Shown in pieces: positions 56 to 24,381 of a DNA stretch of 32,000 bases (its first letter is position 1; every line of letters starts with the position of its first letter). The stretch comes from Candidatus Saccharimonadota bacterium (GTDB taxonomy: Archaea > Nanohalarchaeota > Nanosalinia > Nanosalinales > Nanosalinaceae), in contig NZ_CP180230.1 in assembly GCF_047555085.1 (NCBI RefSeq), positions 720,001-752,000 of the forward strand, in the 5' to 3' direction. The notes under the pieces are model-generated. The model made no database searches. It was not told the DNA's origin and worked only from the letters and a program-made list of their open reading frames with translations. The translations under genes and the position numbers were made by a program.

Positions 56-697
56 TCAAAGGCCTCTAACATCCGACTGAGAAAATCCTCCACGCGAAGC
101 ATTATACAAGGCCTTTATCGAGGCCTCCGGAAGAGGATAATCCCAGACACGGACATGAGCCAGTTTTCCTCTGCCATAGCTACCTCCATTTCTATTCTCA
201 CATATCTTATATGCATTGAACTGTCCAGAAGTCAAGTTAGAAGAAGTATCCAGAAGTTCACCATTCCTGTATGCCTTGGCACCATTGGGGCCGACTTTCC
301 AAACAATATTTACCCAGCCTGCTCCGTTAACATTATTCCATCTAAGTCTAGTATTGGATACTTCATTCAGAACAAGATTGCTTCCATTGTAATATAGCTG
401 AAGAGAATTAGATACAGTGTAGTCATCAGTTGTAGAAAAATATGAATTCTGTATATTATCTGTTTTCAGCCAGATAGAAACCGTATGACTCCCATTCCAG
501 TTAGGCGCAGAAGAATAAACGCGGCCATCCTGTCCATCAAACTCGTACGCAGATTCTCCCAGAGGCCCGGAAACGTCCTGCGTAACACCAACACTCAAAG
601 AACCATGATGCTCTCTCCCCGAATAATCCAAAGCATTTCCAGAGGCCTCCTGCAAAGGCCAGTATCCAACAGTCCGCGTAAATATTTTCGATCTCAT
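56..697 (-). CDS. LamG/concanavalin-A-like jelly-roll protein, single domain (module 1, member A1)
   Basis: 213-aa ORF with ATG at 697 and TGA at 56-58. Laminin_G_3-type pattern: 'VGYWPLQEASGNALDYSGREHHGS', 'AYEFDGQDGRV' and C-terminal 'GKLAHVRVWDYPLPEASIKALYN'. The first 17 and last ~30 residues nearly match A2 (19269..19931); the core is not alignable. No signal peptide is visible. Confidence 0.8.
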   Translation of the reverse strand: MRSKIFTRTVGYWPLQEASGNALDYSGREHHGSLSVGVTQDVSGPLGESAYEFDGQDGRVYSSAPNWNGSHTVSIWLKTDNIQNSYFSTTDDYTVSNSLQLYYNGSNLVLNEVSNTRLRWNNVNGAGWVNIVWKVGPNGAKAYRNGELLDTSSNLTSGQFNAYKICENRNGGSYGRGKLAHVRVWDYPLPEASIKALYNASRGGFSQSDVRGL

Positions 698-706
698 AAA
701 TTTGAT

Positions 707-1456
707 TCAGCTCCTCGAAAATCCCCAATTAGCATTTCTCCCAACATTATACAGCTTCCAGACCTGCTGCTGAGACAAGGCCTCAGAATAAATCCTTACT
801 TCATCGATCTCTGAGTTCCCTGATGTTACGCTGCCATTACTGTCATCATATCTGGCGCCTATTTGTGTATCCTTGGAATGTGATATAGATCCATAGGATG
901 CCGGCGAACCCGGATCATATGCAGTGGTTTCGGCCTCTGTACCATCCAGTAAAATCCTCATACTGTCTTTATCATTATCTCTCATAACCACTGCATGATG
1001 CCAGTTTCCATCAGCGACCACTTGAGTTGTCCTATATACAATCTCATCATTGCTTCCATCATCTATGGAAATTCTTAGATATCCTTGAATAATCCAGCTG
1101 TAAAAACCTGCAAAGCCTGCACTTTCATCCCTGTTATCAATAATAGGGACATTTCCGCTTGTATCGGAGGTCTTAAACCAAAAAGAGACACTGAATGATG
1201 AACTGCCGAATGTACTGGCAAAGCTATGTGGCACATTCACGTAATCATCGCTCCCATCAAAACTAAAGGCCTCAGAGCCTCCGACACCGGAAGCGCCTGT
1301 AGTAATTCCACCATTCAAAGATCCATCATTGCTCCCCCAGGAGTCACTGATAACACCTGAAGATACATCACTTGAATCCATACTCCAGCGACTAACAGCT
1401 GAAGAAGGCCTGACTTTGTCCGGATGTACAGTTGCCTCATTCAGATTTTTAGTCAT
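707..1456 (-). CDS. LamG-like domain protein (module 1, member B1)
   Basis: 249-aa ORF whose ATG overlaps the C1 stop (ATGA at 1453-1456). Hallmarks are 'SDSWGSNDGSLNGGITTG..SEAFSFDGSDDYVNV' and 'IDEVRIYSEALSQQQVWKLY'. Residues 1-73 and the last 33 match B2; the middle is divergent. Confidence 0.8.
   Translation of the reverse strand: MTKNLNEATVHPDKVRPSSAVSRWSMDSSDVSSGVISDSWGSNDGSLNGGITTGASGVGGSEAFSFDGSDDYVNVPHSFASTFGSSSFSVSFWFKTSDTSGNVPIIDNRDESAGFAGFYSWIIQGYLRISIDDGSNDEIVYRTTQVVADGNWHHAVVMRDNDKDSMRILLDGTEAETTAYDPGSPASYGSISHSKDTQIGARYDDSNGSVTSGNSEIDEVRIYSEALSQQQVWKLYNVGRNANWGFSRS
717..785 (-). repeat. 69-nt block identical to 19951..20019 (B C-terminus)
   Basis: Base-by-base comparison gives 69/69 identity, flanked by ~85-90% identity that runs through the B-A junction. 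Confidence 0.9.
1266..1342 (-). repeat. 77-nt block (1 mismatch) shared with 20476..20552 (B N-terminal region)
   Basis: 52 identical nt, one A/G difference, then 24 identical nt. Confidence 0.9.
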
Positions 1457-2823
1457 ACATCAAGGCCTCCCATCTCAACAATTTTTTGGATTTCACTCTG
1501 AGTTAGAGGCCTGTTGTATATACGGAAGTCTGATATCTTGCCGTCCAGGTGTTCGTAGTTGTAGCCTCCGAGAGAGATAAATTCCGGGGAAAGGGTTATT
1601 CCTGCGTCTGTTAAAGTATTCTTTTTCTGGCCGTTGTAGTAGAAGTCAACATCGTTTCCTGTGCCGTGATTTACAAGAGTCACAAGATTCCAGGAATTGT
1701 TCTCCCATTCAGAGACCGGCATCAATCCATCTCCCCACGGAGACTGGATCTTATCAGTCGCAGAATCATAGATATACACTCTATCCGAGTTATCAGGAGA
1801 ATCAAATAGATAATCCCCGTTAGTTCCATCTGCAGAAAGATTCTCCGTATTTGCCCAGAAAGAAATCGTATAAGTAGAAAGGCTTAGGGCGGAAGTATCT
1901 AACTGAACTTCTTCATTGTTAGCCGAATCAAAACTTCTGGCCTTCGCTCCTCCAAGGCCTACAGCCGTACTCGTACCTGTCACACTCGTAGAATCAAAAT
2001 TATTCCCGGATAGATCATAGGCCTTCCCTGCCGAGTCTTCATTGAGAGGCCAGTGCCCGACAAGGCCCGAAGTCAGTCTGTCCTGATCAGTAATATTTTG
2101 AGTAGACGTCCTCTGATACAGGGCCTCTACTTCTGCTGTGCTTAGCACTCTGTCATATATTCTGACGTCGTCTATCTGTCCGTTTAGACGGTCTGAAAGT
2201 GAGCCGTCATCTTTTACTCTTGCGCCGATGTATTTAGTATTAGAATTGGAGGTATCGTTTTCTCTTGTTCCTGTTGCATCCTGACTTGCGTCTACATAAC
2301 CTGTTAACTCTGTACCTCTTGCCACTAGGGCTATCTGATGCCAGTTTCCGTCGTTAACAGTTACAGAACCGTCCATAGTTCCCCAGTTGTAGTCCACAGT
2401 TCCATCAGAGTTAAATCCTATCTCAGCTCGCCTTGTGCCTGCTGTCCCACTCTGCCTGTCCGATATTATATATCCTGTAGATGTAGTTTTTACCCATAAA
2501 ACATAACTGTAATCATCCGATGCGGAAGCCCCCAGTCCCTGGAGAAAACCTCTGGAAGAAAAACTGACGTAGGAACTTCCATCAAAATCCTTTGCATCGC
2601 CTATTTTACCTGAGACGTATCCTGCTGAAGTATTATCTGTCCCGTTGTTGTCTAAGGCCTTGTCTTCGACCGTGCCGTCAAAAGGATAGTATGCAACGAG
2701 GCCGTCTGTCAAGCTCCCTAATTCGTAGCCCTGCTGGAGGCCTGCACTCAGACTGTCTTCTGTATCATCGGTTACGCCTGTCGAGTCTCTTCTTGTAAGT
2801 TCTTCAGAGTTCCAGCGTACCAT
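1453..2823 (-). CDS. Tandem two-LamG-domain protein (module 1, member C1)
   Basis: 456-aa ORF with two LamG_3 units, ending 'IDDVRIYDRVLSTAEVEALY' and 'ISDFRIYNRPLTQSEI'. The inter-domain linker is encoded by 134 nt identical to C2. It starts 36 nt downstream of tatC. Confidence 0.8.
   Translation of the reverse strand: MVRWNSEELTRRDSTGVTDDTEDSLSAGLQQGYELGSLTDGLVAYYPFDGTVEDKALDNNGTDNTSAGYVSGKIGDAKDFDGSSYVSFSSRGFLQGLGASASDDYSYVLWVKTTSTGYIISDRQSGTAGTRRAEIGFNSDGTVDYNWGTMDGSVTVNDGNWHQIALVARGTELTGYVDASQDATGTRENDTSNSNTKYIGARVKDDGSLSDRLNGQIDDVRIYDRVLSTAEVEALYQRTSTQNITDQDRLTSGLVGHWPLNEDSAGKAYDLSGNNFDSTSVTGTSTAVGLGGAKARSFDSANNEEVQLDTSALSLSTYTISFWANTENLSADGTNGDYLFDSPDNSDRVYIYDSATDKIQSPWGDGLMPVSEWENNSWNLVTLVNHGTGNDVDFYYNGQKKNTLTDAGITLSPEFISLGGYNYEHLDGKISDFRIYNRPLTQSEIQKIVEMGGLDV
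2042..2175 (-). repeat. 134-nt block identical to 21282..21415 (C inter-domain linker)
   Basis: Base-by-base comparison gives 134/134 identity. A further 30/30 block lies at 1931..1960 and 21171..21200. Confidence 0.9.
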
Positions 2824-2859
2824 TGTATAACTCTTTATTCTAATTGCTTGTTAAGTTTT

Positions 2860-3546
2860 CTACTTGTTTATCCTCTTCACGATATGTATACTGGCTTCGT
2901 ACAGGCCTAGCATAGGCAACGTGATCAAGGCCTGAGAGATTATATCAGGTGGTGTTGCGAAAGCAGCCAGCACCAAAACAGCTATGATAAAGTATCTGCG
3001 GTACTGCTTCATCATACCGGAATTTATAAGGCCTAGACGCGCCAGTAAAGCCGATATTATCGGCAGCTGGAAGAAGATCCCTGTGAAAGTGGAAAGTTTC
3101 AGTGCAAATCCTATAGTGCTTTGAAGGCCCCATACAGAGTTTACTGTGCTGGCTGATGAGAAGGCCTGGAAGAATGCAAGGCTTGTCTTGACTATGAACT
3201 GGTATGCGAAAGTCGCTCCTCCTATAAAAAGTATTATAGAGAAAGGTAGAAAGTTTCTGAGCGATGTGTACTCTCTTCTTGTAAGGCCTGGTTCTGCGAA
3301 CTTCAAGGCCTGGTAGACGATCACTGGAAGTGTCAGTACTATCCCTATGATTATTGAAATCATTAACTGGGTGTAGAAGACTTCGAAAGGTGTGAACGCG
3401 TTCAGACTGAATCCTAGATCAGTCTGGAAGAATGAAAGTATCATTCCGGATTTGTAGAAAACTCCTGCAGTGGCTAAAACTATGAATATAGAAGTGAAAA
3501 TCAGGCGTCTCCTGAGCTCTCTCAAATGGTGTTCAAAACTGTTCAT
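2860..3546 (-). CDS. tatC: Twin-arginine translocase subunit TatC
   Basis: 228 aa and polytopic. TatC motifs are 'HLRELRRRL', 'FAEPGLTRRE', 'FFQLP' and 'ATPPDIISQ...LYE'. It starts 16 nt downstream of tatA. Confidence 0.9.
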   Translation of the reverse strand: MNSFEHHLRELRRRLIFTSIFIVLATAGVFYKSGMILSFFQTDLGFSLNAFTPFEVFYTQLMISIIIGIVLTLPVIVYQALKFAEPGLTRREYTSLRNFLPFSIILFIGGATFAYQFIVKTSLAFFQAFSSASTVNSVWGLQSTIGFALKLSTFTGIFFQLPIISALLARLGLINSGMMKQYRRYFIIAVLVLAAFATPPDIISQALITLPMLGLYEASIHIVKRINK

Positions 3547-3562
3547 TGCTCAACAGGCCTTC

Positions 3563-3769
3563 TTACTCGCTAGAATCCTTAACGTCCTCTACCTCTGATT
3601 CTACATCCGGAGCAACGTCTTTGCCGACTTCCTCGGCTTCCTGCATAGACTTCTTGTACTCCTTCTTCGACTCACCCAGAGAACGGGCAAGCTGAGGTAG
3701 CTTCTTAGGACCTATAAGCAGAGCAAAAATCGCCGCTGCAATCAAGATAATCTCCCAGTTACCAAACAT
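3563..3769 (-). CDS. tatA: Twin-arginine translocase subunit TatA/E
   Basis: 68 aa. An N-terminal TM plus hinge 'WEIILIAAAIFALLIGPKKLPQLARSLG' is followed by an acidic tail. A TATA-like TATTTATT lies 22 nt upstream of the ATG. Confidence 0.85.
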   Translation of the reverse strand: MFGNWEIILIAAAIFALLIGPKKLPQLARSLGESKKEYKKSMQEAEEVGKDVAPDVESEVEDVKDSSE

Positions 3770-3791
3770 ACACCAGAATTACACTCGAATC

Positions 3792-3799
3792 AATAAATA
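3792..3799 (-). promoter_or_regulatory. TATA-box-like element upstream of tatA
   Basis: Minus-strand TATTTATT lies 22 nt before the ATG at 3769. It is preceded by T-runs (TTAATTTTTCTGTGTTTT) after the stop of gene D. Confidence 0.4.
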
Positions 3800-3828
3800 C
3801 CTTAGGCCTCAAAACACAGAAAAATTAA

Positions 3829-5187
3829 TCACAGGCCTCTACTGTTCACAGTGAACTTTCTCATGTCCCGGCCTCTAGTCCCCCAACGATACAGTTCGAA
3901 AATCTCTTCCGGGCTTAAAGCTCTGTTGTATACTCTCAAGTCATCGATGAGGCCTTGGAAGTACCCATAGGGATCTGGTGTCTGTTCATCTGTAGTCCCT
4001 CCTATATCTAATGGATAATCATTTGTCCATCCTGAAATATTGCCTGCACCTTCGTCCACTTTAACTCCGTCTACATAGGCTTTTACGCCGGCACCTTGCT
4101 CATATACTCCTGTGACATGATGCCAGTTACCATCACGAACTCCAGAGGCATACGCATAAGCATCGTTCGACCCATCCTGATAGGAAAAACGCAGATCTCT
4201 TTCACCATTGGTTATGATATCCCATACCTTATGCACCCCACCGGCAAGCTCTCCCTTCCCAACTAAAACATGAGAATAACCCGTAAGAGAAGATTTAAGC
4301 CAAAAAGAACACGTTAACGATTCTCCAGAACCGATATCAAACGCAACACTGTCCGAAACTTCTACTCTATCATCATTCCCGTCAAAATCAGCTGCCTGAC
4401 CTCTTATCGCATCATTACTCCACGAAAGACCTCCACTAGTTGTTCCGTTATTCGATCCCCAGGAATCATCCACGTTTCCATCAAAGGCCCAGCGAGAAAC
4501 AGCCGAAGAATCAGAATCATTCGGAGGCCTCGCATAATCTCCAGATCCCCATTCGTGTAGAGTCTTTATTTCATCGGATGAAAGTGTGCGGGAGTAGAAT
4601 CTTGCATCCGTCATGTTTACGTTGCTCCAGCTGTTGTATACCGCGGCGATCCAAAGAGGATCTGTGGACACGTTTGATGGAGATGGAACGGATGTAGTTG
4701 AGCCATCTAGCTCGCCGTCCAGATAAACTTTCCATTCTGATCCATCATATTGCAAGGCTACGTGATGCCATTTTCTGTCATCTACTACTGTATTACCTAT
4801 AACTTCTGTACTTCCACCACCCACACCGATGTAGAATTTATTCTGCTCTGGATGGCTGCTGTTAGAAAACTGTAAGCTAAACTGGCCTGCCTGATAAGTC
4901 TCATCTGCCGGGGACTGACCGAAAAACTTTTGCTCATCTCCAAAACTTCCTTTCCTTTTGATCCATGCTGTGAAAGTCCAAGGCGGAGAAGTAGTATCGA
5001 GATTGCTTCCGGAAACCTTTACAACATCATCGTTTCCGTCAAAACTGTAGCTTGTTAGGCCTCCTTTACCGGCTACACCTTGCGTAACACCGCCATTCAA
5101 AGATCCATGATTTCCGTTGCCAGAAAGATCATAGGCCTTTGATCCGGAATCTTCGTGTAGAGGCCACCAGCCAATTAATCCAGTCAT
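3829..5187 (-). CDS. Tandem two-LamG-domain protein (member D)
   Basis: 452 aa with two LamG_3 units. Unit starts are 'WWPLHEDSGSKAYDLSGNGNHGSLNGG..YSFDGNDDVV' and 'SRWAFDGNVDDSWGSNNGTTSGG..ADFDGNDDRV'; unit ends are 'TDARFYSRTLSSDEI' and 'IDDLRVYNRALSPEEI'. It ends in SRGL, as A1 ends in VRGL. Confidence 0.8.
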   Translation of the reverse strand: MTGLIGWWPLHEDSGSKAYDLSGNGNHGSLNGGVTQGVAGKGGLTSYSFDGNDDVVKVSGSNLDTTSPPWTFTAWIKRKGSFGDEQKFFGQSPADETYQAGQFSLQFSNSSHPEQNKFYIGVGGGSTEVIGNTVVDDRKWHHVALQYDGSEWKVYLDGELDGSTTSVPSPSNVSTDPLWIAAVYNSWSNVNMTDARFYSRTLSSDEIKTLHEWGSGDYARPPNDSDSSAVSRWAFDGNVDDSWGSNNGTTSGGLSWSNDAIRGQAADFDGNDDRVEVSDSVAFDIGSGESLTCSFWLKSSLTGYSHVLVGKGELAGGVHKVWDIITNGERDLRFSYQDGSNDAYAYASGVRDGNWHHVTGVYEQGAGVKAYVDGVKVDEGAGNISGWTNDYPLDIGGTTDEQTPDPYGYFQGLIDDLRVYNRALSPEEIFELYRWGTRGRDMRKFTVNSRGL

Positions 5188-5209
5188 ATTTTAGGCCTCT
5201 GAGAATTTT

Positions 5210-5932
5210 TTATACTGAGAGTTCGATGTTGTTGATTACTGCTGTTTTTTCTACGTTGGAGTTCTCGAGTTCGATATGCATCCAGTAGTCGTTGCCTGTT
5301 CCTCCTGAAAGATTTGTGAGGCTGTAGGAGCTTGTTCCGTCCTGTAGTGTTATTGTTTGTTCGCTGTCAGCAGTTCCGTTTCCTGTGGTGTCTTCGTATA
5401 CTGTAACTGTTGCTGTGGTGTCTGTTGGGACGTTGGCGTCGACTGTTGCTACTGCGCTTACGCCTTCAATCTCGACGTAGTCTATTACTGCTGTTTCTTC
5501 TATGTTGGAGTTTTCGAGTTCAAGTTCTATCCAGTAATTGTTTCCTGGCTCTCCTGTAAAGTCAGATAGCGAATAAGTGTTTGTTCCATCCTGTAGCTGT
5601 ACTGAACTGGTGTTATCGGCTACACCGTTTCCAGAAGTATCTTCGTATATAAATAATGTTGCTGCCTGTCCGTTCAGCGTTGTGGCTGCTGTAAGTTCTA
5701 CTCCTCCTGTTCCTGTTGATATGCTCGTACTTACAGCCAGGGTTCCATTATTTTCTGTCTGTACCCGTAACTGGTTGAGTTCAGCATTAGAAGGATCAAC
5801 AAGATTCAGTGCTCCTGTACCTGTTTCCGTCTGGACTCTAACTATAGGATTATCTACATCAGTAGGCTCGAATACCGGTACTTCTTCTGTACCTGTTTCT
5901 GTCCCAACTTTCACAGTCCCTATTTTAGCCAT
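5210..5932 (-). CDS. Acidic Thr/Gly-rich protein with two ~66-aa tandem repeats, function unknown
   Basis: 240-aa ORF. Residues 91-156 and 174-239 repeat the pattern 'VYEDT(S/T)GNG.AD...LQDGT..YSL...G..GN.YW..ELENSN.E.TAVI'. It starts 15 nt downstream of the Tat-signal gene. I recognise no family. Confidence 0.6.
   Translation of the reverse strand: MAKIGTVKVGTETGTEEVPVFEPTDVDNPIVRVQTETGTGALNLVDPSNAELNQLRVQTENNGTLAVSTSISTGTGGVELTAATTLNGQAATLFIYEDTSGNGVADNTSSVQLQDGTNTYSLSDFTGEPGNNYWIELELENSNIEETAVIDYVEIEGVSAVATVDANVPTDTTATVTVYEDTTGNGTADSEQTITLQDGTSSYSLTNLSGGTGNDYWMHIELENSNVEKTAVINNIELSV
5216..5662 (-). repeat. Two in-frame tandem coding repeats (~198 nt each, at 5216..5413 and 5465..5662) inside the 240-aa gene
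   Basis: Period is 83 codons. Nucleotide identity is roughly three quarters by eye, for example ATTACTGCTGTTT(T/C)TTCTA(C/T)GTTGGAGTT(C/T)TCGAGTT. Confidence 0.8.
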
Positions 5933-5947
5933 TGGTTAACACACTCC

Positions 5948-6232
5948 TTAGTCAAGGTCTGTCCTGTACCACATCTGGCCTACTTCAGGATTGCTTGGAT
6001 CTGCTGTTCTCTTGTCAAGGACAAAGTTCTTGATCTCACCTGCAACTTCTGTTCCAGGCATACCGGAAAGAAAATTATTTCCATTAACATCAATAGAATC
6101 TGATCCAATCCTGACACGTGAAGCTGCAGAAGGAATAAGGCTTAAAGCACCAATGCTCAGAGATCCGATTCCAAGCATCTTCATGAAACCTCTGCGGGAA
6201 ACACCTTCCTCTTGTTCTATTTCTTCAGACAT
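5948..6232 (-). CDS. Small secreted protein with twin-arginine (Tat) signal peptide
   Basis: 94 aa. Tat motif 'VSRRGFMKM' is followed by the h-region 'LGIGSLSIGALSLIPSAAS', leaving a mature part of only ~55 aa. A TATA-like box lies 24 nt upstream. Confidence 0.7.
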   Translation of the reverse strand: MSEEIEQEEGVSRRGFMKMLGIGSLSIGALSLIPSAASRVRIGSDSIDVNGNNFLSGMPGTEVAGEIKNFVLDKRTADPSNPEVGQMWYRTDLD

Positions 6233-6256
6233 TACATCGAGTAATTGTATTCAGTC

Positions 6257-6264
6257 ATTTTTAA
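6257..6264 (-). promoter_or_regulatory. TATA-box-like element upstream of the Tat-signal small-protein gene
   Basis: Minus-strand TTAAAAAT lies 24 nt before the ATG at 6232, which implies a leaderless or very short leader transcript. Confidence 0.45.
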
Positions 6265-6354
6265 CCTTTAACCCTGCAAGAGTGTCAGACAGTGAAATAA
6301 CAGAATACAGAGTTCTCAAGTTCTGGCAAAAATGTGAAGATGAGTAGAGAATTG

Positions 6355-6398
6355 GAAACAAAAATGTAAGAAACGGGGAAAAAGGAAATAGAGGCCTT
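6355..6398 (-). terminator. Oligo-T termination region after rps7
   Basis: The minus strand after the TAA reads AAGGCCTCTATTTCCTTTTTCCCCGTTTCTTACATTTTTG, with two T5 runs. Archaeal RNAP terminates at oligo-T. Confidence 0.35.
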
Positions 6399-7028
6399 TT
6401 ATCGTGCGCCGTCTGCCTCTCTTTCACGTCTTTCCTTCTCACGGACTGCCTTGACGGAGTTATCTCCTTCTGCAGCAGCCATAAGTTCATCTGCAAGAGT
6501 CTGTGAGGCCTCTTCAGATGATGTTAGTCTGTCCTGGTATTCTCCCTGGACAAGCAGTCTGAGTGCGAGATCTACTCTTCTCTGAGGTGCAACTAGAACT
6601 GCTTTACGTGCTCTTGCTCCTCCTCTTGAGTATGAGACTACTTCCTCGACTGGAGCCGAGTTCTCAATAGCGTCTACAAGAATCTGAATCGGATTTTCTC
6701 CGGTCTCTTCTTCGATTATTTCAAATGATTCTTCGATTAGCTTCCAGAGTCGCTCGCTTGAGCCTGTGTTCTGTCCGGAAGATACAAGATGTTTCCCTCC
6801 AGAATGTCCTGCAACGTACATCCTGTTGAGAAGTCTTTCTACAATCGGTACATCCGCCTTGTAGAACTGTTTCTCGCTGTGTCTTCCCTTTGAACGTGGT
6901 GCTGAGATGTTTTCAAGATTGAGATATCGGACAAGTCCATCGTCGCTTACTTCTACTTCCGATGCATCCCATCTTCCGAATGTAAGAATCTCGTCTTCCA
7001 GTTCCAGTGTTGCTGCGTCTGTTGTCAT
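6399..7028 (-). CDS. rps7: 30S ribosomal protein S7 (uS7)
   Basis: 209 aa with the archaeal uS7 pattern ('RSKGRHSEKQF', 'NPIQILVDAIENSAP.EEV', 'REKERREREADGAR' tail). GGTGAT lies 7 nt upstream of the ATG, and the gene directly follows rps12. Confidence 0.95.
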   Translation of the reverse strand: MTTDAATLELEDEILTFGRWDASEVEVSDDGLVRYLNLENISAPRSKGRHSEKQFYKADVPIVERLLNRMYVAGHSGGKHLVSSGQNTGSSERLWKLIEESFEIIEEETGENPIQILVDAIENSAPVEEVVSYSRGGARARKAVLVAPQRRVDLALRLLVQGEYQDRLTSSEEASQTLADELMAAAEGDNSVKAVREKERREREADGAR

Positions 7029-7036
7029 TTTTTAGA

Positions 7037-7459
7037 TCACCGTGTTGGCTTCTGCTTGTTTCCTGCGACGAGTTCTTCAAGTGAAACGCCATTTACTTTG
7101 ATTACCTTGTATCTGACTGTCGGGATGTCTCCTTTCGGTCCGGAGTCTGCTCCTCCGATTCCCTCGATCATCACTTCGTCGTGCTCGTCGATGTGGTCGA
7201 TCGCTCCGTCGCCCGGAACGAAAGCTGTCAACTGTTTACCGTTTTTGAGGAGCTGTACACGCACACATTTTCGCAGCGCTGAGTTAGGCTGCTTTGCCTC
7301 GATTATACGTTTTTCTAGAACAATTCCTCTTCCCTGAGGGCTTCCCTCAAGAGGATCTGCCTGATCCTTCAAATTCAACATCCTTCGCTTGTAATATTTA
7401 TCGCTCCAGCGGTACTGCTGGCTGTTCTTCCTCATTTTACGTGCACTATACAGTCCCAT
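7037..7459 (-). CDS. rps12: 30S ribosomal protein S12 (uS12)
   Basis: 140 aa: '[20 protein letters not shown]', '[16 protein letters not shown]', '[27 protein letters not shown]'. TATAAAAA lies 24 nt upstream. Confidence 0.95.
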
Positions 7460-13451: not shown

Positions 13452-15248
13452 CTATTCCTCCTCTACCTCGATGTCAGTATCTATCATCAGTGATTTTAAC
13501 TCATCGAGTAGAAGCAGCATAGCGTGAGGGATTTCTGTCTCCTCGAACTCTCCGTCTTCACCGTTCTGCTTCACGACTTTGTTCTGTTCACGGTCAAGGT
13601 AACCTCTGTCACCCGACTCCGTGTCGACGTGGATCTCGCTGGCGTCAGCTCCGAACCGCTCCTTCAGAAGCAGTGAAGCTCCGTGTCCAACGAAAACGTC
13701 CTTTTCCATCTCTCCCAGCCGGAGGCCTCCCTCCTGACTGCGTCCTTCTGTAGGCTGCTTTGTAAGCAGTGTGACAGGTCCACGGCTTCTTGCGTGCACC
13801 TTGTCCCCGACCATGTGACTCAACTTGAGGTAGAAACCAGGCCCGATCATAATCTCGGCCTCCATCTCCTCACCGGTTACACCGTTGTACATGGTCTCTT
13901 TACCGGATGACTCGAATCCAAGCTCCTCAAGCTGATCTCTGAGCTTGTCCTTGTCCTCTCCGTGATAAGCTGTGGCATCGACTTTCTCTCCACGGAGAGC
14001 TCCAACTTTTCCTCCAATTAACTCGATTATCTGCGCCACGGTCATACGGCTTGGGATAGCGTGCGTGGAAAGAATCATGTCAGGAGTAATACCCTGTTTC
14101 GTGAAAGGCATGTTCTCCTCAGGAGCGATCATTCCGATAACTCCTTTCTGTCCGTGTCTTGTCGCAAACTTGTCTCCAAGCTCAGGGATACGGTACTCAC
14201 GCATCTTTGCCTTGATCAGCTTGTCACCGTCACCGGTCTCGGAAAGCATAACCTTGTCAATAACTCCCTGCTCTCCGTGCCTTACTGTGAGACTTGTCTC
14301 TCTCCTCTCTGCAAGCCCCATCTTCATCTCTTCGCCGCCTCCTCCAAGGAACTTCGGAGGAGAAGTCTTACCTACAATCACATCATCGGAATCTACCTGT
14401 GTCTCAGGATTAACGATTCCATCATCATCAAGATGCTCATAGGCCTCTTCACGCCTGTATCCACGGACATCCTTATCCGGAATAGAAATTCTATCCTTCT
14501 GACCTCCGTAGAAACGCTTGGCCTCTGTCTTGTAAGTCCTCATATAAGTTGAACGTCCCAGGCCTCTCTCGATAGAGGCCTTGTTCATGATTACTGCGTC
14601 CTCGATGTTGTATCCATCGAAGGATGCAAGAGCAATCATCATGTTCTGGCCGATCGGATGCTCTCCGACAAGAGTATCGTATGTGTTTGTCTCTACTATC
14701 GGCTGCTGAGAGTAAGTCAGCACGTTAGATCTTGTATCAAATCTCTGATGGAACTCGCTTGTAGGCATTCCAAGTCCCTGTCCTGCCATCTTTGCACCGA
14801 AGTTCACACGGTCTCCACGATTGTGTTCAGGATAGACTGTCAGAGAAGCTGATACACCGTGGATAATCTCGGAGTCGATCTCCATGTGAGTATGCTCGCC
14901 AGTAACTTCCTCTTCATTCATAGCTACGTAGGCATTCTCTTCCTCTTCAGCATCGATGTACTCGATGATTCCTTCATCTTCAAGATCTTCAAGACTTATT
15001 TCTCCTTCCTGAAGCTGCTCTCTCTGCTCATCTGTAAGAAGAGGTTCACCGTCTTCAACGATGACTACAGGCCTCATGACTCTTCCAGAGTCTGTATTGA
15101 TCCTGATCTCATCACGGTTCTCGTTGTAGTATACCGATACTTCCTGATCAAGCTCTCCTTCACGCCTCTTTTCAATCAGATTCTCACGGATCTCCTCAGG
15201 AGAATCAACATCGTCAACTATCTGACCGTCAAGGAATACGTCAGTAAT
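13452..15248 (-). CDS. rpoB1: DNA-directed RNA polymerase subunit B' (C-terminal half of split RpoB); start codon unresolved
   Basis: Conserved 'RHGQKG', 'GEMEKD' and 'PSRMT.AQ'. The first ATG is at 15077. The frame stays open and RpoB-like for 59 more codons ('TDVFLDGQIVDDVDSPEEIRENLIEKRREGEL..INTDSGRV'), up to the TGA at 15255-57. That stretch contains no ATG, GTG or TTG. I placed the 5' end at the ATT at 15246-48, which has GGTGAT 5 nt upstream. Confidence 0.85.
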   Translation of the reverse strand: MTDVFLDGQIVDDVDSPEEIRENLIEKRREGELDQEVSVYYNENRDEIRINTDSGRVMRPVVIVEDGEPLLTDEQREQLQEGEISLEDLEDEGIIEYIDAEEEENAYVAMNEEEVTGEHTHMEIDSEIIHGVSASLTVYPEHNRGDRVNFGAKMAGQGLGMPTSEFHQRFDTRSNVLTYSQQPIVETNTYDTLVGEHPIGQNMMIALASFDGYNIEDAVIMNKASIERGLGRSTYMRTYKTEAKRFYGGQKDRISIPDKDVRGYRREEAYEHLDDDGIVNPETQVDSDDVIVGKTSPPKFLGGGGEEMKMGLAERRETSLTVRHGEQGVIDKVMLSETGDGDKLIKAKMREYRIPELGDKFATRHGQKGVIGMIAPEENMPFTKQGITPDMILSTHAIPSRMTVAQIIELIGGKVGALRGEKVDATAYHGEDKDKLRDQLEELGFESSGKETMYNGVTGEEMEAEIMIGPGFYLKLSHMVGDKVHARSRGPVTLLTKQPTEGRSQEGGLRLGEMEKDVFVGHGASLLLKERFGADASEIHVDTESGDRGYLDREQNKVVKQNGEDGEFEETEIPHAMLLLLDELKSLMIDTDIEVEEE

Positions 15249-19268: not shown

Positions 19269-19931
19269 CTAGATTGTTTTACTGTCTGACTGTCCGAATC
19301 CGCCTCTGGAAGCATTGTACAAGGCCCTGATAGAGGCCTCCGGCAGAGGATAATCCCAGATCCTGACGTGAGCGATTTTTCCGTTGAATGGTTCGGTGTT
19401 GTCGGCGCGTCTTCCTATCTTCATGCTTGAGGCCGGTTGATTCAGGTTGCCTGTCTTGGAGAAAGATCCGATTTTCCGGCCGTTGTTGTACAGCTCCACA
19501 GTATTTCCATCGTATCGGACTACTGCAAAGTTCCAGGTATTCTTGAGACCGGAAACCGGTTGCTGCGTGTTACTCCATCCTTCAGCATCTGTCTGTACAT
19601 GCACCTCCAGATTATCGTCGCTGTCATCAACCTTCAGATTGATATTTTCAAAGTATCCGACCACAGAATGCCTGCTGGAATCACTGCCCTCATAACGCCA
19701 CCACGCCGCCAGAGTCAAACGATCTCCGGAAGGAAGAGCGCTGTCGACAACAATCTCATCATCAGTACCATCGAAATCCATAGCAGAACTGCCTACAGGC
19801 CCAGAAACACCATAAGATGAGACATTCGCAGTCGAAGCATGATTCTCATTGCCACTATAGTCATAGGCCTGGCCGCTACTTTCCTGCAAAGGCCAGTATC
19901 CAACAGTCCGAGTAAAAATCTTAGATCTCAT
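19269..19931 (-). CDS. LamG-like domain protein (module 2, member A2)
   Basis: 220 aa. 'MRSKIFTRTVGYWPLQE' and 'AHVRIWDYPLPEASIRALYNASRGGF' match A1; the core is divergent. Confidence 0.8.
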   Translation of the reverse strand: MRSKIFTRTVGYWPLQESSGQAYDYSGNENHASTANVSSYGVSGPVGSSAMDFDGTDDEIVVDSALPSGDRLTLAAWWRYEGSDSSRHSVVGYFENINLKVDDSDDNLEVHVQTDAEGWSNTQQPVSGLKNTWNFAVVRYDGNTVELYNNGRKIGSFSKTGNLNQPASSMKIGRRADNTEPFNGKIAHVRIWDYPLPEASIRALYNASRGGFGQSDSKTI

Positions 19932-19940
19932 AACTTCGAT

Positions 19941-20666
19941 TCAACTCCTTGAAAATCCCCAATTAGCATTTCTCCCAACATTATACAGCTTCCAGACCTG
20001 CTGCTGAGACAAGGCCTCACTGTAAATCCGGACCTCATCAATTTTTCCTTTAAACATATATTTGGACTGTCCCTGCCCATCTGCATTTGTGTCAAGACTT
20101 CCCATGATCATATGTTTTCCACTTGTATCCCCCATCGTCCCTGACGCAGATTGTTCGCTAACTTTCGAGCCGTTCACGTAGATACGTTGTTTTGAACCAT
20201 CCCAAGTGCCGGTAATATGATACCATCCAGTATTTATCACCGATCCAATTCCCGCCCGTAAATCAACTTTTCCGCCATCAAGACCTAACCTGAAGAGGAA
20301 ATCATCTGTATCATCTTGATAAGACAGGACATACGCGCCCGAGTTTCCAACCACAACATTGTAACTGCTGTTGGAACTTGAACCCGTTACTTTCACCCAC
20401 GAGGAAACAGTGAGCCGTGTAAAACCTCCTAGCACATCCCCCACGGCTACATAATCATCGCTTCCGTCGAAACTGAAGGCCTCAGAGCCTCCGACACCGG
20501 AAGCGCCTGTAGTAATTCCACCATTCAGAGATCCATCATTGCTCCCCCAGGAATCCTGTAAAGTTCCTGAACTGACATCAGAACTGTCCATACTCCAGCG
20601 TGAGACAGCAGAAGCAGGCCTCACTTTATCCGGATGAGTCGAGGCCTGTGAAATATCCCTAGTCAT
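19941..20666 (-). CDS. LamG-like domain protein (module 2, member B2)
   Basis: 241 aa. The N-terminal ~73 residues and the C-terminal 33 residues ('IDEVRIYSEALSQQQVWKLYNVGRNANWGFSRS') match B1. It has an ATGA overlap with C2. Confidence 0.8.
   Translation of the reverse strand: MTRDISQASTHPDKVRPASAVSRWSMDSSDVSSGTLQDSWGSNDGSLNGGITTGASGVGGSEAFSFDGSDDYVAVGDVLGGFTRLTVSSWVKVTGSSSNSSYNVVVGNSGAYVLSYQDDTDDFLFRLGLDGGKVDLRAGIGSVINTGWYHITGTWDGSKQRIYVNGSKVSEQSASGTMGDTSGKHMIMGSLDTNADGQGQSKYMFKGKIDEVRIYSEALSQQQVWKLYNVGRNANWGFSRS
19951..20019 (-). repeat. 69-nt block identical to 717..785
   Basis: See the partner entry. Confidence 0.9.
20476..20552 (-). repeat. 77-nt block (1 mismatch) shared with 1266..1342
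   Basis: See the partner entry. Confidence 0.9.
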
Positions 20667-22048
20667 ACATCAAGGCCTCCCATCCTCGCCAGAGTCTCAA
20701 TTTCGGATTTTGAAAGAGTTCTGTTGTAGAATCTTACATCCTGGATCTGGCCTTTCCAGTTGTAATTCCTCTGAGCCATATTTCCAATCAATATTTTTTC
20801 GTCAAGCAGAGAAGAGTCGTTAGGAATTGATAGCGAGGCCTTATTTTGAGCGTCAAGGTATACTTCATACTTATCCTCTGTGAGATCGACGACGAGTGTG
20901 AAAAAATGCCATTCGCCGTCATTAAAAGTTTCCGAACTAACGAACTCCACCAAGTTCCCTCCAGACTCGACATAATATGATCTGAATACTCCTGAATCTC
21001 TAAGTTCAGCTATCTGCCAGTCAGGAGGAGAATCAGGATCACTTCCACTCTGCAGGATAGCATTAATCGAATTAGGGGTCTCTTCAGCTTTGAACCATCC
21101 GGTAACAGTTGATCTAGACCCTCCTCCTACCGGAGAATCAGGAATCTGGATCTGATCATCGCTGCCATCGAAACTTCTGGCCTTCGCTCCTCCAAGGCCT
21201 GCGGCTGTAGTAGTACCAGTTACAGAAGTGGAATCATTGCCTCTACCAGATAGATCGTAGGCCTTCCCTGAGCCGTCTTCGTTGAGAGGCCAGTGCCCGA
21301 CAAGGCCCGAAGTCAGTCTGTCCTGATCAGTAATATTTTGAGTAGACGTCCTCTGATACAGGGCCTCTACTTCTGCTGTGCTTAGCACTCTGTCATATAT
21401 TCTGACGTCGTCTATATATCCGTCTGTGAAGTACTGTCCGTCTCCTCTGTTACCGATCTTTGTTGTATTTGAAGAGGAAGTTGATTCTGTTGCGTTCACT
21501 GTTGAGATCAGGTTTCCTCCTCTGTAGTATCTTATCTTGGAACCGTCGTAAGTCACGCAGACGTGGATCCACTGTCCCTGAGGCCAGCCGCTTTCAAGAT
21601 TGTGTTGAGAACCGCCAAACCAGAGCTGGACACCGGAACTGTAGTCGTAGCGGAACAGGGTGCCGTCACTTCCATCGTAATTTGCAAGTATGTTGAATTC
21701 ATCGCTTGACCCGCCGCCTCTGTCATATATCCATGCAGACATCGTCAACTGATCCATAGACCCGACACTGAATTTTTCACCGGTATCCACGTAGTCATCA
21801 TTTCCATCAAAGGCCTTCGCCTGACCGATCTTTCCAGATACAAAACCTGCAGAAGTATTATCTGTCCCGTCGTGATTCAGGGCCTTGTCCTCGACCGTTC
21901 CGTCAAAAGGATAATATGCAACGAGGCCGTCAGCCAGGCTTCCAAGCTCGTAACCCTGTCGGAGGCCTGAAGAGAAATCATTCCTGGCCTCGTCTGTGAG
22001 GCCTGTAGAATCTCTTCTTGTCAGCTCTCCAGGATTCCAGCGTACCAT
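20663..22048 (-). CDS. Tandem two-LamG-domain protein (module 2, member C2)
   Basis: I moved the start to the ATG at 22048 ('MVRWNPGELTRRDSTG'), by homology to C1 ('MVRWNSEELTRRDSTG') and because TTATATTT lies 21 nt upstream. The ORF-track start at 22099 adds 17 unmatched residues. Confidence 0.8.
   Translation of the reverse strand: MVRWNPGELTRRDSTGLTDEARNDFSSGLRQGYELGSLADGLVAYYPFDGTVEDKALNHDGTDNTSAGFVSGKIGQAKAFDGNDDYVDTGEKFSVGSMDQLTMSAWIYDRGGGSSDEFNILANYDGSDGTLFRYDYSSGVQLWFGGSQHNLESGWPQGQWIHVCVTYDGSKIRYYRGGNLISTVNATESTSSSNTTKIGNRGDGQYFTDGYIDDVRIYDRVLSTAEVEALYQRTSTQNITDQDRLTSGLVGHWPLNEDGSGKAYDLSGRGNDSTSVTGTTTAAGLGGAKARSFDGSDDQIQIPDSPVGGGSRSTVTGWFKAEETPNSINAILQSGSDPDSPPDWQIAELRDSGVFRSYYVESGGNLVEFVSSETFNDGEWHFFTLVVDLTEDKYEVYLDAQNKASLSIPNDSSLLDEKILIGNMAQRNYNWKGQIQDVRFYNRTLSKSEIETLARMGGLDV
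21282..21415 (-). repeat. 134-nt block identical to 2042..2175
   Basis: See the partner entry. Confidence 0.9.
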
Positions 22049-22069
22049 GGGTAGAAGTTTGTGTAATGA

Positions 22070-22077
22070 AAATATAA
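22070..22077 (-). promoter_or_regulatory. TATA-box-like element upstream of LamG module 2
   Basis: Minus-strand TTATATTT lies 21 nt before the ATG at 22048. Confidence 0.45.
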
Positions 22078-22132
22078 GCTTAATCAGAGTGTCTGTCAAG
22101 AAAAAACAGGAAATGAAAAATTGGAGGCCTTT

Positions 22133-22404: not shown

Positions 22405-24381
22405 ATGTGTGGAATCACTGGAGCACGTGAAAAAGAAACAGTAAAGGCCTTGAACAGGCATCTGAAGCATAGAGGCCAGAGCTGCAGCATCGAAGAAACA
22501 GAAAACTTTTCTCTAGGCCATTACCTTCATTCCGTCGTTGGAACAGTCGAACAACCACTGGAAGAAGAAGGCCTCCTGTCAGCGAACTGCGAGATATACA
22601 ACTGGAAGGAACTGAACAGAAAATACGGCTGGGATACGGAAAACGATGCAGAAACACTTCTCAAACTGCTTGAGAAAAAAGGAGTCAAAGGCCTGAAAGA
22701 AATCGACGGGATATACGCATTCGCATATCTGAAAAACGGTGAAATTATACTTGCACGTGACAGACTCGGCGTTAACCCGATCTGGTACTCTGAAAAAGAA
22801 TTCGCATTCGCCTCGGAGAAACAGGCTCTGGAAAAGGAAGGATTCACAGAAATAAAGGAGCTTCACCCGAGACAGATACTTGTCCACGACCTGGAGAGCC
22901 AGGAAACCTCTTTCAGGCAGAGAGAATTCTTCGAGATAACCGCGGATGAACAGGAAAAAGTTACAGATGAAAACATAGACGAAACAGCAGAACAGATCAA
23001 GGAGATATTCCTGAAAGCTGTGGAGAAAAGAGTGCCTGAAGGAGATGTCGGACTTCTTTTCTCTGGAGGCCTAGACTCCACTCTTGTGGCAGCGGCTTTA
23101 CAGGAACTCGATAAAGATTTCACTGCATACACCGCAGGGATACAGCACGGGAACGTCTCAGCTCCAAGAGACTACGAAAAGGCCCACGAAGTAGCTGAAA
23201 AAATGGGATTCCCTCTGGAAAGATACGAGGCCTCCCTAGAAGAGGTAGAGAAAGTTTTACCGGATCTTGTGGACTGGATCTCTACTACTAACGTCGTGAA
23301 GCTTGGAGTGGCTCTGCCTTTCCATTTCAGTCTGGCGCAGAAGAATCAGGCCTCTGAGCAGGTCGTTTTCACGGGATTCGGTTCCGAACAGCTTTATGCT
23401 GGTTACGCACGGCAGCAGGGATACCTGAACAAGGAGTGTCTGTCCGATCTGAGAGGGATTTTCCATGAAGATCTGTATCGGGATAACGTAGTAAGTTTCA
23501 GGAATGGCAGGGAGTTACGAGTACCTTTCCTGGATGAAGAACTTGTTGAGTATGCACTTTCTATACCTGAAGATATGAAAAGGACCGAAGAGTACCGTAA
23601 ATATGTTTTGAGGAAGGCTGCGGAGAAGCTTGGCGTCCCTGAAGATGTGGCGTGGCGGAAAAAAGTTGCTGCACAGTACGGATCAAACTTTGACAAGGCT
23701 GTAGGGAAACTGGCGAAAAACTCCGGCTTTGACCAGAAACAGAAATACGTCAACCAGTTCCGTGAAAAACCTAATAAGAAACTTGTTGCTCTTACTTCAG
23801 GAGGAAAGGACTCGAACGCAGCTTTGTTCCGCATGTGGCGTCGAAACAACGAAATATCGTGTCTTCTAACCCTGAGATCTGAAAACAAGGCCTCTTACAT
23901 GTTCGACTCGAAGAAATCGGATAAAGACCTGGAATGGCAATCAGAAAAACTTGGTATTCCGCTTATAACACAGGAAACAAAGGGAGAAAAAGAAAAAGAG
24001 CTTGAAGATCTGCGTAAAGGCCTGGAAAAAGCGAAGGAAAAATTTGATGTTGAAGGAGTTGTCGCCGGCGCTATTGAGTCAAGTTATCAGCGAGATCGCG
24101 TGGATAAAGTCGCTGAAGAGGTAGGCCTGAAAGTTTTCACACCGCTGTGGCAGTTTGATCAGAAACAGTACATGCACTGGCTTGTACGGGAAGGCTTCGA
24201 TGTTAAAATAACTGATGTGGCGGCTAGAGGTCTCTCAGAGGATTGGGAAGGCAAAGTTCTGGATAAAGAAGGTGTTGAGGATCTTCTGGAGTTAGCGGAC
24301 GAGTATCGTTTCCATCCTGCCGGTGAAGGCGGAGAGTACGAGACAAAGGTTGTCGGTTTCCCGGAAGAGCTTGTCGATTAA
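22405..24381 (+). CDS. Fusion: glutamine-amidotransferase/asparagine-synthase-like protein plus Dph6/MJ0570-type PP-loop ATPase (diphthine-ammonia-ligase-like)
   Basis: 658 aa. It has an 'MCGI' Ntn nucleophile and AsnB-like 'NCEIYN', 'DGIYAFA' and 'LARDRLGVNPIWY'. The first PP-loop is 'LFSGGLDS' (res 219-225). The second PP-loop is 'ALTSGGKDS' (res 462-470), followed by 'GAIESSYQR.RV' and 'PAGEGGEYET', typical of the MJ0570/Dph6 family. Confidence 0.8.
   Translation: MCGITGAREKETVKALNRHLKHRGQSCSIEETENFSLGHYLHSVVGTVEQPLEEEGLLSANCEIYNWKELNRKYGWDTENDAETLLKLLEKKGVKGLKEIDGIYAFAYLKNGEIILARDRLGVNPIWYSEKEFAFASEKQALEKEGFTEIKELHPRQILVHDLESQETSFRQREFFEITADEQEKVTDENIDETAEQIKEIFLKAVEKRVPEGDVGLLFSGGLDSTLVAAALQELDKDFTAYTAGIQHGNVSAPRDYEKAHEVAEKMGFPLERYEASLEEVEKVLPDLVDWISTTNVVKLGVALPFHFSLAQKNQASEQVVFTGFGSEQLYAGYARQQGYLNKECLSDLRGIFHEDLYRDNVVSFRNGRELRVPFLDEELVEYALSIPEDMKRTEEYRKYVLRKAAEKLGVPEDVAWRKKVAAQYGSNFDKAVGKLAKNSGFDQKQKYVNQFREKPNKKLVALTSGGKDSNAALFRMWRRNNEISCLLTLRSENKASYMFDSKKSDKDLEWQSEKLGIPLITQETKGEKEKELEDLRKGLEKAKEKFDVEGVVAGAIESSYQRDRVDKVAEEVGLKVFTPLWQFDQKQYMHWLVREGFDVKITDVAARGLSEDWEGKVLDKEGVEDLLELADEYRFHPAGEGGEYETKVVGFPEELVD

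Follow-up and report, generated by a model that had tools for sequence, protein, structure and literature searches.

We describe a cluster of eight genes in a 32,000-nucleotide stretch of DNA (contig NZ_CP180230.1, positions 720,001 to 752,000; this whole stretch is the window, and all positions are counted from its first nucleotide). The window is part of a nanohaloarchaeal chromosome, and the cluster encodes TatA and TatC of the system for twin-arginine translocation (Tat), a 94-residue protein with a Tat signal (the mini-protein), a 240-residue repeat protein (rep240), and four proteins with LamG domains (D, C1, B1, and A1). From comparison of their sequences, we regard it as a serious possibility, falling a little short of probable, that the locus is a nanohaloarchaeal cell-surface island, in which a minimal TatA-TatC translocase and its cognate small Tat substrate allow signal-less partners to be exported as hitchhikers. 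The role of such an island would probably be host adhesion. The related loci give good support to rep240, through its N-terminal module, as the best-linked candidate partner of the mini-protein, in place of the LamG proteins.

The eight co-oriented genes of the original prediction were all recovered as open reading frames (ORFs) at the coordinates foreseen, on the minus strand and directly downstream of rps7. Their spacing, given there as a 4-nt overlap to 59 nt, was measured as successive gaps of 15, 22, 59, 16, 36, -4, and 9 nt. In the order of transcription, the genes and the relevant parts of their products are:

5948-6232, minus strand: mini-protein, 94 residues, a Tat-signal protein ending in a truncated tail-fibre repeat
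6119-6232, minus strand: Tat signal peptide region of the mini-protein (residues 1-38), with the n-region, SRRGFMK, the h-region MLGIGSLSIGALSLIPSAAS, and AAS as a possible site of cleavage
5951-6037, minus strand: C-terminal end module of the mini-protein (residues 66-94), EIKNFVLDKRTADPSNPEVGQMWYRTDLD, the first half of a phage-tail-fibre-type repeat
5210-5932, minus strand: rep240, 240 residues, signal-less, with an N-terminal module and two beta-rich repeats of ~80 residues
5732-5932, minus strand: N-terminal module of rep240 (residues 1-67, MAKIGTVKV…VPVFEP…VRVQTE…), a conserved module of ~65 residues
3829-5187, minus strand: D, 452 residues, two LamG domains, signal-less; it closes the first unit
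3563-3769, minus strand: tatA, 68 residues
2860-3546, minus strand: tatC, 228 residues, bacterial-type
1453-2823, minus strand: C1, 456 residues, two LamG domains, signal-less
707-1456, minus strand: B1, 249 residues, one LamG domain, signal-less, with constant termini and a hypervariable core
56-697, minus strand: A1, 213 residues, one LamG domain, signal-less; it closes the second unit

Residues 12-18 of the mini-protein, SRRGFMK, agree with the Tat consensus S/T-R-R-x-F-L-K, and the h-region comprises 20 uncharged residues with a 13-residue Kyte-Doolittle mean of 1.78. The NCBIfam model TIGR01409 (TAT_signal_seq) recognizes the protein with 20.6 bits (cut-off 16.7) and matches none of the other seven products of the cluster. 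A TatFind-like scan was performed on every ORF of at least 40 residues in the whole 32-kb window, with all possible start codons considered; TatC was the only other real gene product to match, through RR pairs that lie ahead of its own transmembrane segments. A hydrophobic N-terminus is absent from rep240, D, C1, B1, and A1, where the best 15-residue Kyte-Doolittle mean within the first 40 positions is at most 0.49. The listed ORFs begin at the first possible start codon and therefore leave no hidden N-terminal extension, and the orthologues of rep240, C, B, A, and D at other loci likewise start without a signal. The three agreeing checks (scan, TIGR01409, and hydrophobicity) confirm the earlier assignment of the sole Tat signal to the 94-residue product. 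Thus, the signal resides on one partner only and the others are signal-less, as hitchhiker export demands.

Arg13, Arg14, Phe16, and Lys18 are invariant among 23 sequences of the mini-protein family, and the sequence indicates that cleavage of the mini-protein signal is possible at SAAS/R. In many members of the Tat-head family (P0140, P0142, P0145-P0147, P0150, and P0154-P0156), a highly charged, coiled-coil-like stretch of 40-60 residues precedes the RR pair. A charged stretch of this length is unusual for a Tat n-region, so that the signal may be kept as a membrane anchor with a cytoplasmic arm.

In Escherichia coli, HybO/HybC (hydrogenase-2) and DmsA/DmsB are Tat hitchhikers, in which only one subunit has a twin-arginine signal. 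By analogy with these pairs, the cluster combines adjacent genes, one signal-bearer, and signal-less partners, and a folded complex would cross the Tat translocase. In contrast to these bacterial cofactor-containing redox enzymes, the signal-bearer here is a cofactor-less stub of ~55 residues, the cargo is adhesin-like, the organism is a DPANN archaeon, and the translocase is TatAC only; furthermore, the complex is here proposed from genes alone. Tat export of bacterial heterodimers with a single signal is established (cf. PMC10924467).

The nature of the part of the mini-protein that follows the signal was overlooked in the original prediction, which had described the Tat signal correctly. 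As judged from its sequence, the protein (mature part ~55 residues) consists of a Tat head with the first half of a phage-tail-fibre repeat directly attached. The last ~29 residues were first spotted closing larger proteins at two related loci. A profile search of 1.84 billion representative proteins with the mini-protein family returned 104 matches, which fall into four groups. The first group contains Tat-signal proteins of 80-157 residues with the head SRRxFLK, an h-region, the segment ASK[VL]TIxDxGI, and the ending …NQNEAxxxVLEKRTSDPSSPxxGQ[MI]WYRTDL. In the second group, the Tat-signal proteins are longer but share this head and ending, often with a charged coiled-coil-like stretch before the RR pair. 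Signal-less proteins closing in the motif make up the third group, and some of them come from viral contigs. A major head protein is encoded on L013 together with a tail-fibre-like protein of 313 residues that ends in the motif; on L014, a 178-residue protein with the same ending follows a virion structural protein. The fourth group consists of giant proteins with 5-14 complete internal units of the form P..P..GDxWYxTDTxxLYxYxxDGxxxxWVD. Complete units are present in P0137-P0139, P0187, and P0226, and the unit is also found inside the tailspike of the Bacillus phages Stills and Staley.

The last ~29 residues of the mini-protein match the phage unit P..P..G.xWY.TD…LY.Y..G..W. Unlike the phage repeats, the mini-protein stops halfway through the unit, has a Tat signal, and is the product of a conserved chromosomal gene; neither the mini-protein nor any of its close homologues, all of which stop after RTDLD, contains the complete unit (P..P..G.xWY.TD followed by ..LY.Y..G..W). 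Sequence comparison marks the mini-protein as the shortest form of its Tat-signal family, for which we found no published description. In AlphaFold2 models based on 23 sequences, the mini-protein shows no compact fold (mean pLDDT 60), but a signal helix at residues 13-29 and two small hairpins, of which the C-terminal one (residues 72-90) reaches a pLDDT of ~77. Searches for a solved structure of the motif, with a repeat protein and the family profile as queries, gave no meaningful match in the Protein Data Bank (PDB). On viral contig L013 (IMGVR_UViG_3300014869_000006, 2488-5161), a DUF2341 protein is encoded two genes past the motif-ended fibre-like protein, an order that echoes the cellular succession of motif and then lectin.

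The shared end module calls for a viral explanation to be weighed. The LamG, repeat, and fibre-motif proteins could be leftover or domesticated fibre genes of an archaeal tailed virus, assembling in the cytoplasm as a viral remnant or tailocin-like structure. This would account for the presence of the end module in tail-fibre-like proteins on L013 and L014 and in the Bacillus phage tailspike, and for the matches of the LamG proteins to PHROGs for virion and tail-fibre proteins. We nevertheless consider it highly improbable. Capsid, terminase, portal, and tail genes are absent from the 32-kb window and from the related loci, while the chromosomal position between rps7 and EF-2 is common to several relatives. 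The mini-protein has a conserved Tat signal and adjoins tatAC. In IMG/VR, the rep240 module was not found and B1 has no close relative (one weak match, 28% identity), and the GC content of the cluster is near that of its flanks.

TatA matches PF02416 (TatA_B_E) with an E-value of 6e-12 and remains under the cut-off of TIGR01411 (47.4 versus 53.9 bits). TatC matches PF00902 (E 3e-53) over 207 of 208 model positions and scores 169 bits with TIGR00945 (cut-off 132.7). Both families are therefore represented, by genes 16 nt apart, and together they constitute a minimal TatA/TatC translocase. With the archaeal model TIGR01912, TatC reaches 127.1 bits, below the equivalog cut-off of 192.6, and is thus not assigned to the archaeal type. 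Its homologues form a tight nanohaloarchaeal clade (48-100% identity), beyond which identity falls to ~36% and the named relatives among the matches are bacterial. At one distant TatC locus, a fibre protein of 1760 residues with a Sec signal is encoded upstream.

The phoD-tatAd-tatCd genes of Bacillus subtilis likewise place a substrate beside a minimal TatAC; this substrate, PhoD, is a large enzyme and is exported by itself. The likeness extends to the gene order substrate-tatA-tatC in the relative NHA29, to the minimal TatAC, and to the bacterial-type TatC. Unlike PhoD, the substrate here is a tiny fibre-like stub with probable partners. Of two cultured nanohaloarchaea analysed previously, one had a lone TatC, and Tat was judged probably inactive (PMC10266531). 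Unlike the published lone TatC (PMC10266531), tatA and tatC are intact and adjacent both in the window and in several relatives. The small tatA (62-73 residues) may have been missed by annotation in the published genomes. In Ca. Nanohalococcus occultus SVXNc, TatC (SVXNc_0793) and the LamG/adhesin genes (SVXNc_0798-0813) are a few genes apart (PMC10266531).

The gene neighborhood was compared across related loci, on contigs labelled as Nanohaloarchaeota metagenome-assembled genomes (MAGs). Twelve close homologues of the mini-protein all end in …GQMWYRTDLD and keep the h-region as well as the RR motif, and in the closer relatives the mini-protein gene (mini below) is always located between rps7 and tatA-tatC. 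The informative arrangements are:

MAG NHA29 (L001/L007): rps7, 99-residue zinc-ribbon gene, mini, tatA, tatC, EF-2
L011: rps7, mini, one-repeat rep protein, tatA, tatC
L012: mini, rep, D, tatA, tatC, C; the window order as far as the C-type gene after tatC
L004: rps7, 100-residue gene, mini, rep240, D…
L029: mini (80 residues), rep (154 residues), C (454 residues, two LamG domains), B (230 residues), directly consecutive
L026: signal-less fibre-like protein of 1243 residues, mini (132 residues), module protein of 513 residues, Tat-head protein of 211 residues, tatA, tatC

These orders show mini, tatA, and tatC as the invariant unit after rps7 in the closer relatives, with the rep protein as an intermediate layer and the LamG genes as variable additions. 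The adjacency of tatAC and LamG genes emphasized in the original prediction is present in the window and in L012, where D and C flank tatAC, but it is the mini-protein that is the invariant neighbor of tatAC. The suggestion that the cluster fills the place of EF-2 after rps7 agrees with NHA29, where EF-2 directly follows tatC; the window stops short of that point. The D orthologues of L012 and L004 are only 36-43% identical. In L029, none of the rep, C, and B products has a signal, and in L026 the mini-family gene lies 2.7 kb upstream of a tatA-tatC pair with a TatC that shares 50% identity with its counterpart in the window. The mini-protein, signal-less surface-type proteins, LamG proteins, and tatAC thus recur in rearranged forms, with mini-protein identities down to ~35-40%. 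The recurrence of mini, partner, and tatAC genes in different orders is what would be expected from a functional linkage and not from a one-off insertion. A scan of species-representative genomes gave three loci, one of which is NHA29, while the other two match the C-terminal motif only.

A zinc-ribbon gene of ~100 residues between rps7 and mini occurs at L001 (9651-9950) and L004 (3329-3631); its product has a weak match to DUF7838 and a hydrophobic C-terminal tail. In the window, the 166-nt spacer between rps7 and the mini-protein gene (6233-6398) has no trace of this gene by tblastn.

The evidence that singles out rep240 as a partner comes from its N-terminal module. The internal repeat of the protein shows 54% identity over 50 residues, and Pfam gives only a weak match to DUF7282. 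At L024, a signal-less protein of 670 residues is encoded 16 nt downstream of a mini-family gene, and its first ~60 residues match the N-terminus of rep240 (MA[KR]IGT…[VI]P[VI]FEP…); the mini-protein of this locus is distant (profile match E 9e-15). A module profile built from five sequences located the module in eight distinct genes, namely rep240, its orthologues in L004, L011, L012, and L028/L029, and genes in L024, L020, and L026. The carrier in L020 is a protein of 467 residues, and that in L026 is a Gly_rich_2/fn3 protein of 513 residues with the module at its C-terminus. A signal peptide is found in none of the eight, and seven of them lie directly downstream of a mini-family gene. In general, the genes directly downstream of the mini-family encode domains of extracellular type, i.e., beta-sandwich repeats, lectin-like, fn3, and Gly_rich_2 domains.

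A natural fusion joins a Tat head to a cargo domain. P0157 (298 residues) has the Tat head, the motif, and a lectin-like domain in one chain, and homologues of this lectin-like domain are the cargo domains in the 670-residue protein of L024 (E 1e-19) and the 467-residue protein of L020 (E 1e-13). Accordingly, the cargo domain is found either fused behind a Tat head or on a signal-less neighbor of a Tat-head mini-protein. A fusion of the mini-protein and rep240 by read-through was also considered and is ruled out by two in-frame stops in the window (TAA GGA GTG TGT TAA), as well as by the differing frames of the two genes in L011 and L012.

D and C1 each contain two Laminin_G_3 domains (PF13385), and B1 and A1 one each, with scores of 162.8 (D, E 8e-48), 121 (C1), 85.3 (B1), and 40.1 bits (A1) against a cut-off of 27.6, which establishes all four as LamG proteins. 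A second, paralogous triad is present in the window:

19269-22099, minus strand: C2-B2-A2, LamG genes with no adjacent tat or mini gene

The paralogues C1/C2, B1/B2, and A1/A2 share 44%, 49%, and 38% identity, respectively. The B family comprises 21 sequences of 216-250 residues, none with a signal. Its conserved parts are the first ~70 and the last ~35 residues; column identity is 0.65-0.94 at these ends and 0.22-0.47 in the LamG core. Genomes with ribosomal proteins of 85-100% identity have B proteins that are only 40-49% identical. A and C also vary little at their termini. At the DNA level, patches with 80-95% identity between the two triads are separated by diverged cores, the longest patch being 178 nt at 95%; the pairs include 648-808 with 19882-20042 and 2006-2183 with 21246-21423. 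These patches suggest exchange between the triads, and the sequences could reflect constant segments flanking variable cassettes, possibly maintained by gene conversion between the two loci. The AlphaFold2 model of B1 is a LamG jelly roll, for which Foldseek returns laminin-G, pentraxin, and botulinum-toxin receptor-binding domains. Residues 1-62 of B1 were considered as a docking arm and dropped, since this region is of low confidence with a shallow alignment and corresponds to the ordinary first-strand region of Laminin_G_3.

LamG proteins are known from other nanohaloarchaea. Cultured representatives have strain-specific LamG/PKD surface proteins, thought to act in host attachment and strongly variable between strains (La Cono 2020, PMC7443923; Reva 2023, PMC10266531). 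The published proteins were called secreted or membrane-bound (PMC7443923, PMC10266531), whereas the small C, B, A, and D proteins described here have no signal and an intact tatA-tatC lies among their genes.

The closest published system is the Tat-fimbriae (tafi) of Haloarcula hispanica, composed of TafA, TafC, and TafE with TafD, TafF, and TafG (Galeva et al. 2025, PMC11821415). The comparison arose from a sub-threshold NCBIfam match of D to TafC. Both systems involve Tat-linked, beta-rich surface proteins of halophilic archaea and include a LamG subunit, thought to be the adhesin in tafi (PMC11821415). In tafi, TafA, TafC, and TafE have their own RR signals, the subunits assemble by donor-strand exchange outside the cell, and TafD and TafG take part (PMC11821415), whereas the present cluster has LamG proteins without signals and tatA/tatC inside. 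A tafi-like filament is conceivable here, with the mini-protein or rep240 as the pilin-like subunit, LamG proteins as tip adhesins in the manner of TafC, and donor-strand exchange outside the cell. It would be in line with the Tat dependence and LamG-bearing tip subunit of tafi (PMC11821415), with the sub-threshold TafC matches given by D, C1, and B1, and with the models, in which the mature mini-protein appears beta-strand-rich and not compact on its own. We regard such a filament as unlikely, given that each secreted tafi subunit has its own RR signal and that the LamG proteins and rep240 have none. In addition, TafA, TafE, the TafD signal peptidase, and TafG (DUF5305) were not detected among the eight products with Pfam, NCBIfam, and PHROGs, and the rest of the window, scanned with Pfam only, yielded no named signal peptidase or DUF5305. 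The TafC match itself amounts to 99.4 bits with NF052521 (cut-off 410) and covers the LamG part only.

Under hitchhiker export, the following sequence of events can be proposed. The half-repeat at the C-terminus of the mini-protein would dock, in the cytoplasm, on the N-terminal module of rep240, the proposed docking element. The LamG proteins might then join this complex through their constant termini, which is the less certain step. TatC would recognize the folded complex through its single signal peptide, and TatA-TatC would export it as a hitchhiker. Binding of the host or other ligands could then take place outside the cell, at the variable surfaces of the LamG and lectin-like proteins.

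The hitchhiker idea of the original prediction, which had been framed around the LamG proteins, is strengthened for rep240 by the pairing in seven of eight cases and by the P0157 fusion, and it is weaker for LamG, which is linked by gene order only; the support is genomic throughout. Conserved linkage is seen for the proteins with the rep240-type module and in part for LamG, which is linked in L029, L012, and L004 but not in NHA29, L011, or triad 2. The connection between the mini-protein and LamG is accordingly partial: it is based on how the genes are ordered in three or four lineages, together with the extracellular-type, hypervariable, and signal-less character of these proteins with their constant ends.

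Several observations weigh against hitchhiker export. In NHA29, the mini-protein gene has no partner nearby, with neither a rep gene nor LamG, and L011 has no LamG gene. Triad 2 has a conserved position of its own, remote from tat and mini genes, between the gene for an asparagine-synthase/diphthamide-synthase fusion and NucS, and the same position is kept in L020-L022. As concerns LamG, the best link of the mini-protein is to rep240, it is the mini-protein, and not LamG, that constantly neighbors tatAC in the closer relatives, and gene order is the sole tie of LamG to the mini-protein or rep240. The module protein of L020 has no adjacent mini gene, in L023 a mini-family gene precedes a protein without the module, and two more distant members of the TatC clade have no mini-protein beside tatAC. 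The motif and the module do not occur together on a single chain, either in the tailspike of the Bacillus phages or in the collection of 240 proteins. Finally, the linkage derives from about ten independent loci, mostly on short metagenomic contigs, which is a small sample.

Part of this evidence would be explained if the genes were unrelated neighbors, with the mini-protein a small Tat-exported or Tat-anchored protein whose gene has remained beside those of its translocase, like phoD beside tatAd-tatCd in B. subtilis, and the LamG and rep genes fast-evolving cassettes, inserted at a permissive site, whose products are cytoplasmic or exported otherwise. The mini-tatA-tatC order of NHA29, without LamG or rep, and the lack of LamG in L011 are as expected in that case, and so are the separate conserved locus of triad 2 without tat and the far greater divergence of the LamG genes compared with their flanks; compact genomes also bring unrelated genes close together. 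On the other hand, the pairing of mini with a signal-less module gene in seven of eight cases spans a deep divergence, the orders mini-rep-C-B in L029 and mini…tatAC in L026 differ from that of the window while the players are the same, and P0157 joins both parts in one protein. Moreover, fn3, lectin-like, and LamG domains would be unusual in cytoplasmic proteins. We therefore view unrelated neighbors as a lesser possibility, though one to be taken seriously.

The lone mini-protein of NHA29 is also compatible with a stand-alone function as a mimic of a fibre tip, in which the protein is exported alone, displays or releases the tail-fibre end motif, and either binds the surface receptor used by viruses, as a minimal adhesin to the host, or blocks it as an antiviral decoy, and the neighbors are unrelated. 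The motif is highly conserved, and viral fibre proteins end in it at the C-terminus, which is presumably their distal end. However, no receptor is known, and such a mimic would explain neither the recurrent signal-less module genes downstream nor the P0157 fusion, so that we consider it quite improbable.

Hitchhiker export may extend beyond this locus. More speculatively, and with doubt prevailing, the Tat-head proteins could be a family of export pilots, whose half-joint clips, in the cytoplasm, onto the module of signal-less lectin, LamG, or fn3 proteins and drags pre-folded and exchangeable sets of adhesins through TatAC, as a modular export system for host recognition. It is similarly tentative that such pilots operate in the nanohaloarchaea and in some other archaea from salty habitats. 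If so, this would be the first non-redox, adhesin-type Tat hitchhiking and the first in archaea, with a viral fibre element as its building block. Nanohaloarchaea and other DPANN symbionts live attached to a host cell, and to our knowledge the choice, variation, and surface delivery of their attachment proteins are largely unexplained. Export with the mini-protein, if true, would explain how extracellular-type proteins leave the cell without an export signal; it would add archaeal adhesins to the bacterial redox enzymes as cargo of Tat hitchhiking and reveal the reuse of a viral tail-fibre joint as a cellular export adaptor. It would also provide a specific job for Tat in a lineage where the system was judged probably inactive (PMC10266531). 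Two small and easily searched elements, the MAKIGT…VPVFEP module and the combination of a Tat head with the …GQMWYRTDL end, would then allow cargo to be sought in metagenomes.

The transcription signals of the cluster were examined as well. Two promoters had been proposed from TATA-like boxes, one before the mini-protein gene and one before tatA, and both boxes are present:

6264-6257, minus strand: TATA-like TTAAAAAT, 25-32 nt upstream of the mini-protein ATG
3792-3826, minus strand: D-tatA spacer, with a terminator-like T-run at 3820-3824 followed by TATA-like TATTTATT at 3799-3792

A third TATA-like box, TATAAAAAAT at 5214-5205, precedes D, which makes promoter calls from A/T boxes alone weak. 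Read on the coding strand, stretches of five or more consecutive T between genes are confined to the sites after rps7 (6328-6383), after D, and after A1 (three runs at 20-52), and the runs after rps7 suggest that a separate unit starts at the mini-protein. Two transcription units, mini-rep240-D and tatA-tatC-C1-B1-A1, as originally proposed with tatAC joined to the LamG triad, are plausible from the sequence because they fit this placement of the T-runs; the A/T boxes add little to them. D (3808-3860) and A1 (17-62) share a near-identical end, …(S/V)RGL and stop, with a similar T-rich tail containing AGGCCT, so it seems from the sequence that one 3' cassette, terminator included, closes both units.

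The window has the character of an archaeal chromosome, with a GC content of ~45%, and the GC content of the cluster is close to that of its flanks. The surrounding minus-strand genes include rpoB''/B', rpoA'/A'', nusA, an ABC1 kinase, rps12 (7037-7459), and rps7 (6399-7028), and PADLOC models for defence systems gave no match. At 15078-15248 (minus strand), all 597 residues of an rpoB' homologue from a relative can be aligned, as far as position 15248, while the first ATG/GTG/TTG of the frame is at 15077 and L021 has the same gene call of 541 residues. The rpoB' start seems, from the sequence, to be a non-canonical codon (…W-L-I-T-D-V-F) or to reflect a sequence error at the site. At 24914-25049 (minus strand), Rfam identifies a tRNA spanning 136 nt (55.7 bits), which probably contains an intron; ARAGORN gave no tRNA in the window. 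The fusion gene next to triad 2 (22405-24381, plus strand) encodes 658 residues, with an asparagine-synthase-like part (GATase and Asn_synthase) and a diphthamide-synthase domain, and the fusion is kept in L020-L022 (668-689 residues). At 27368-28585 (minus strand), a Gly_rich_2 protein of 405 residues has an N-terminal transmembrane or signal segment and seven cysteines. It matches PHROGs for tail-fibre-assembly-like proteins, and a signal-less Gly_rich_2/fn3 protein adjoins the mini-family gene in L026.

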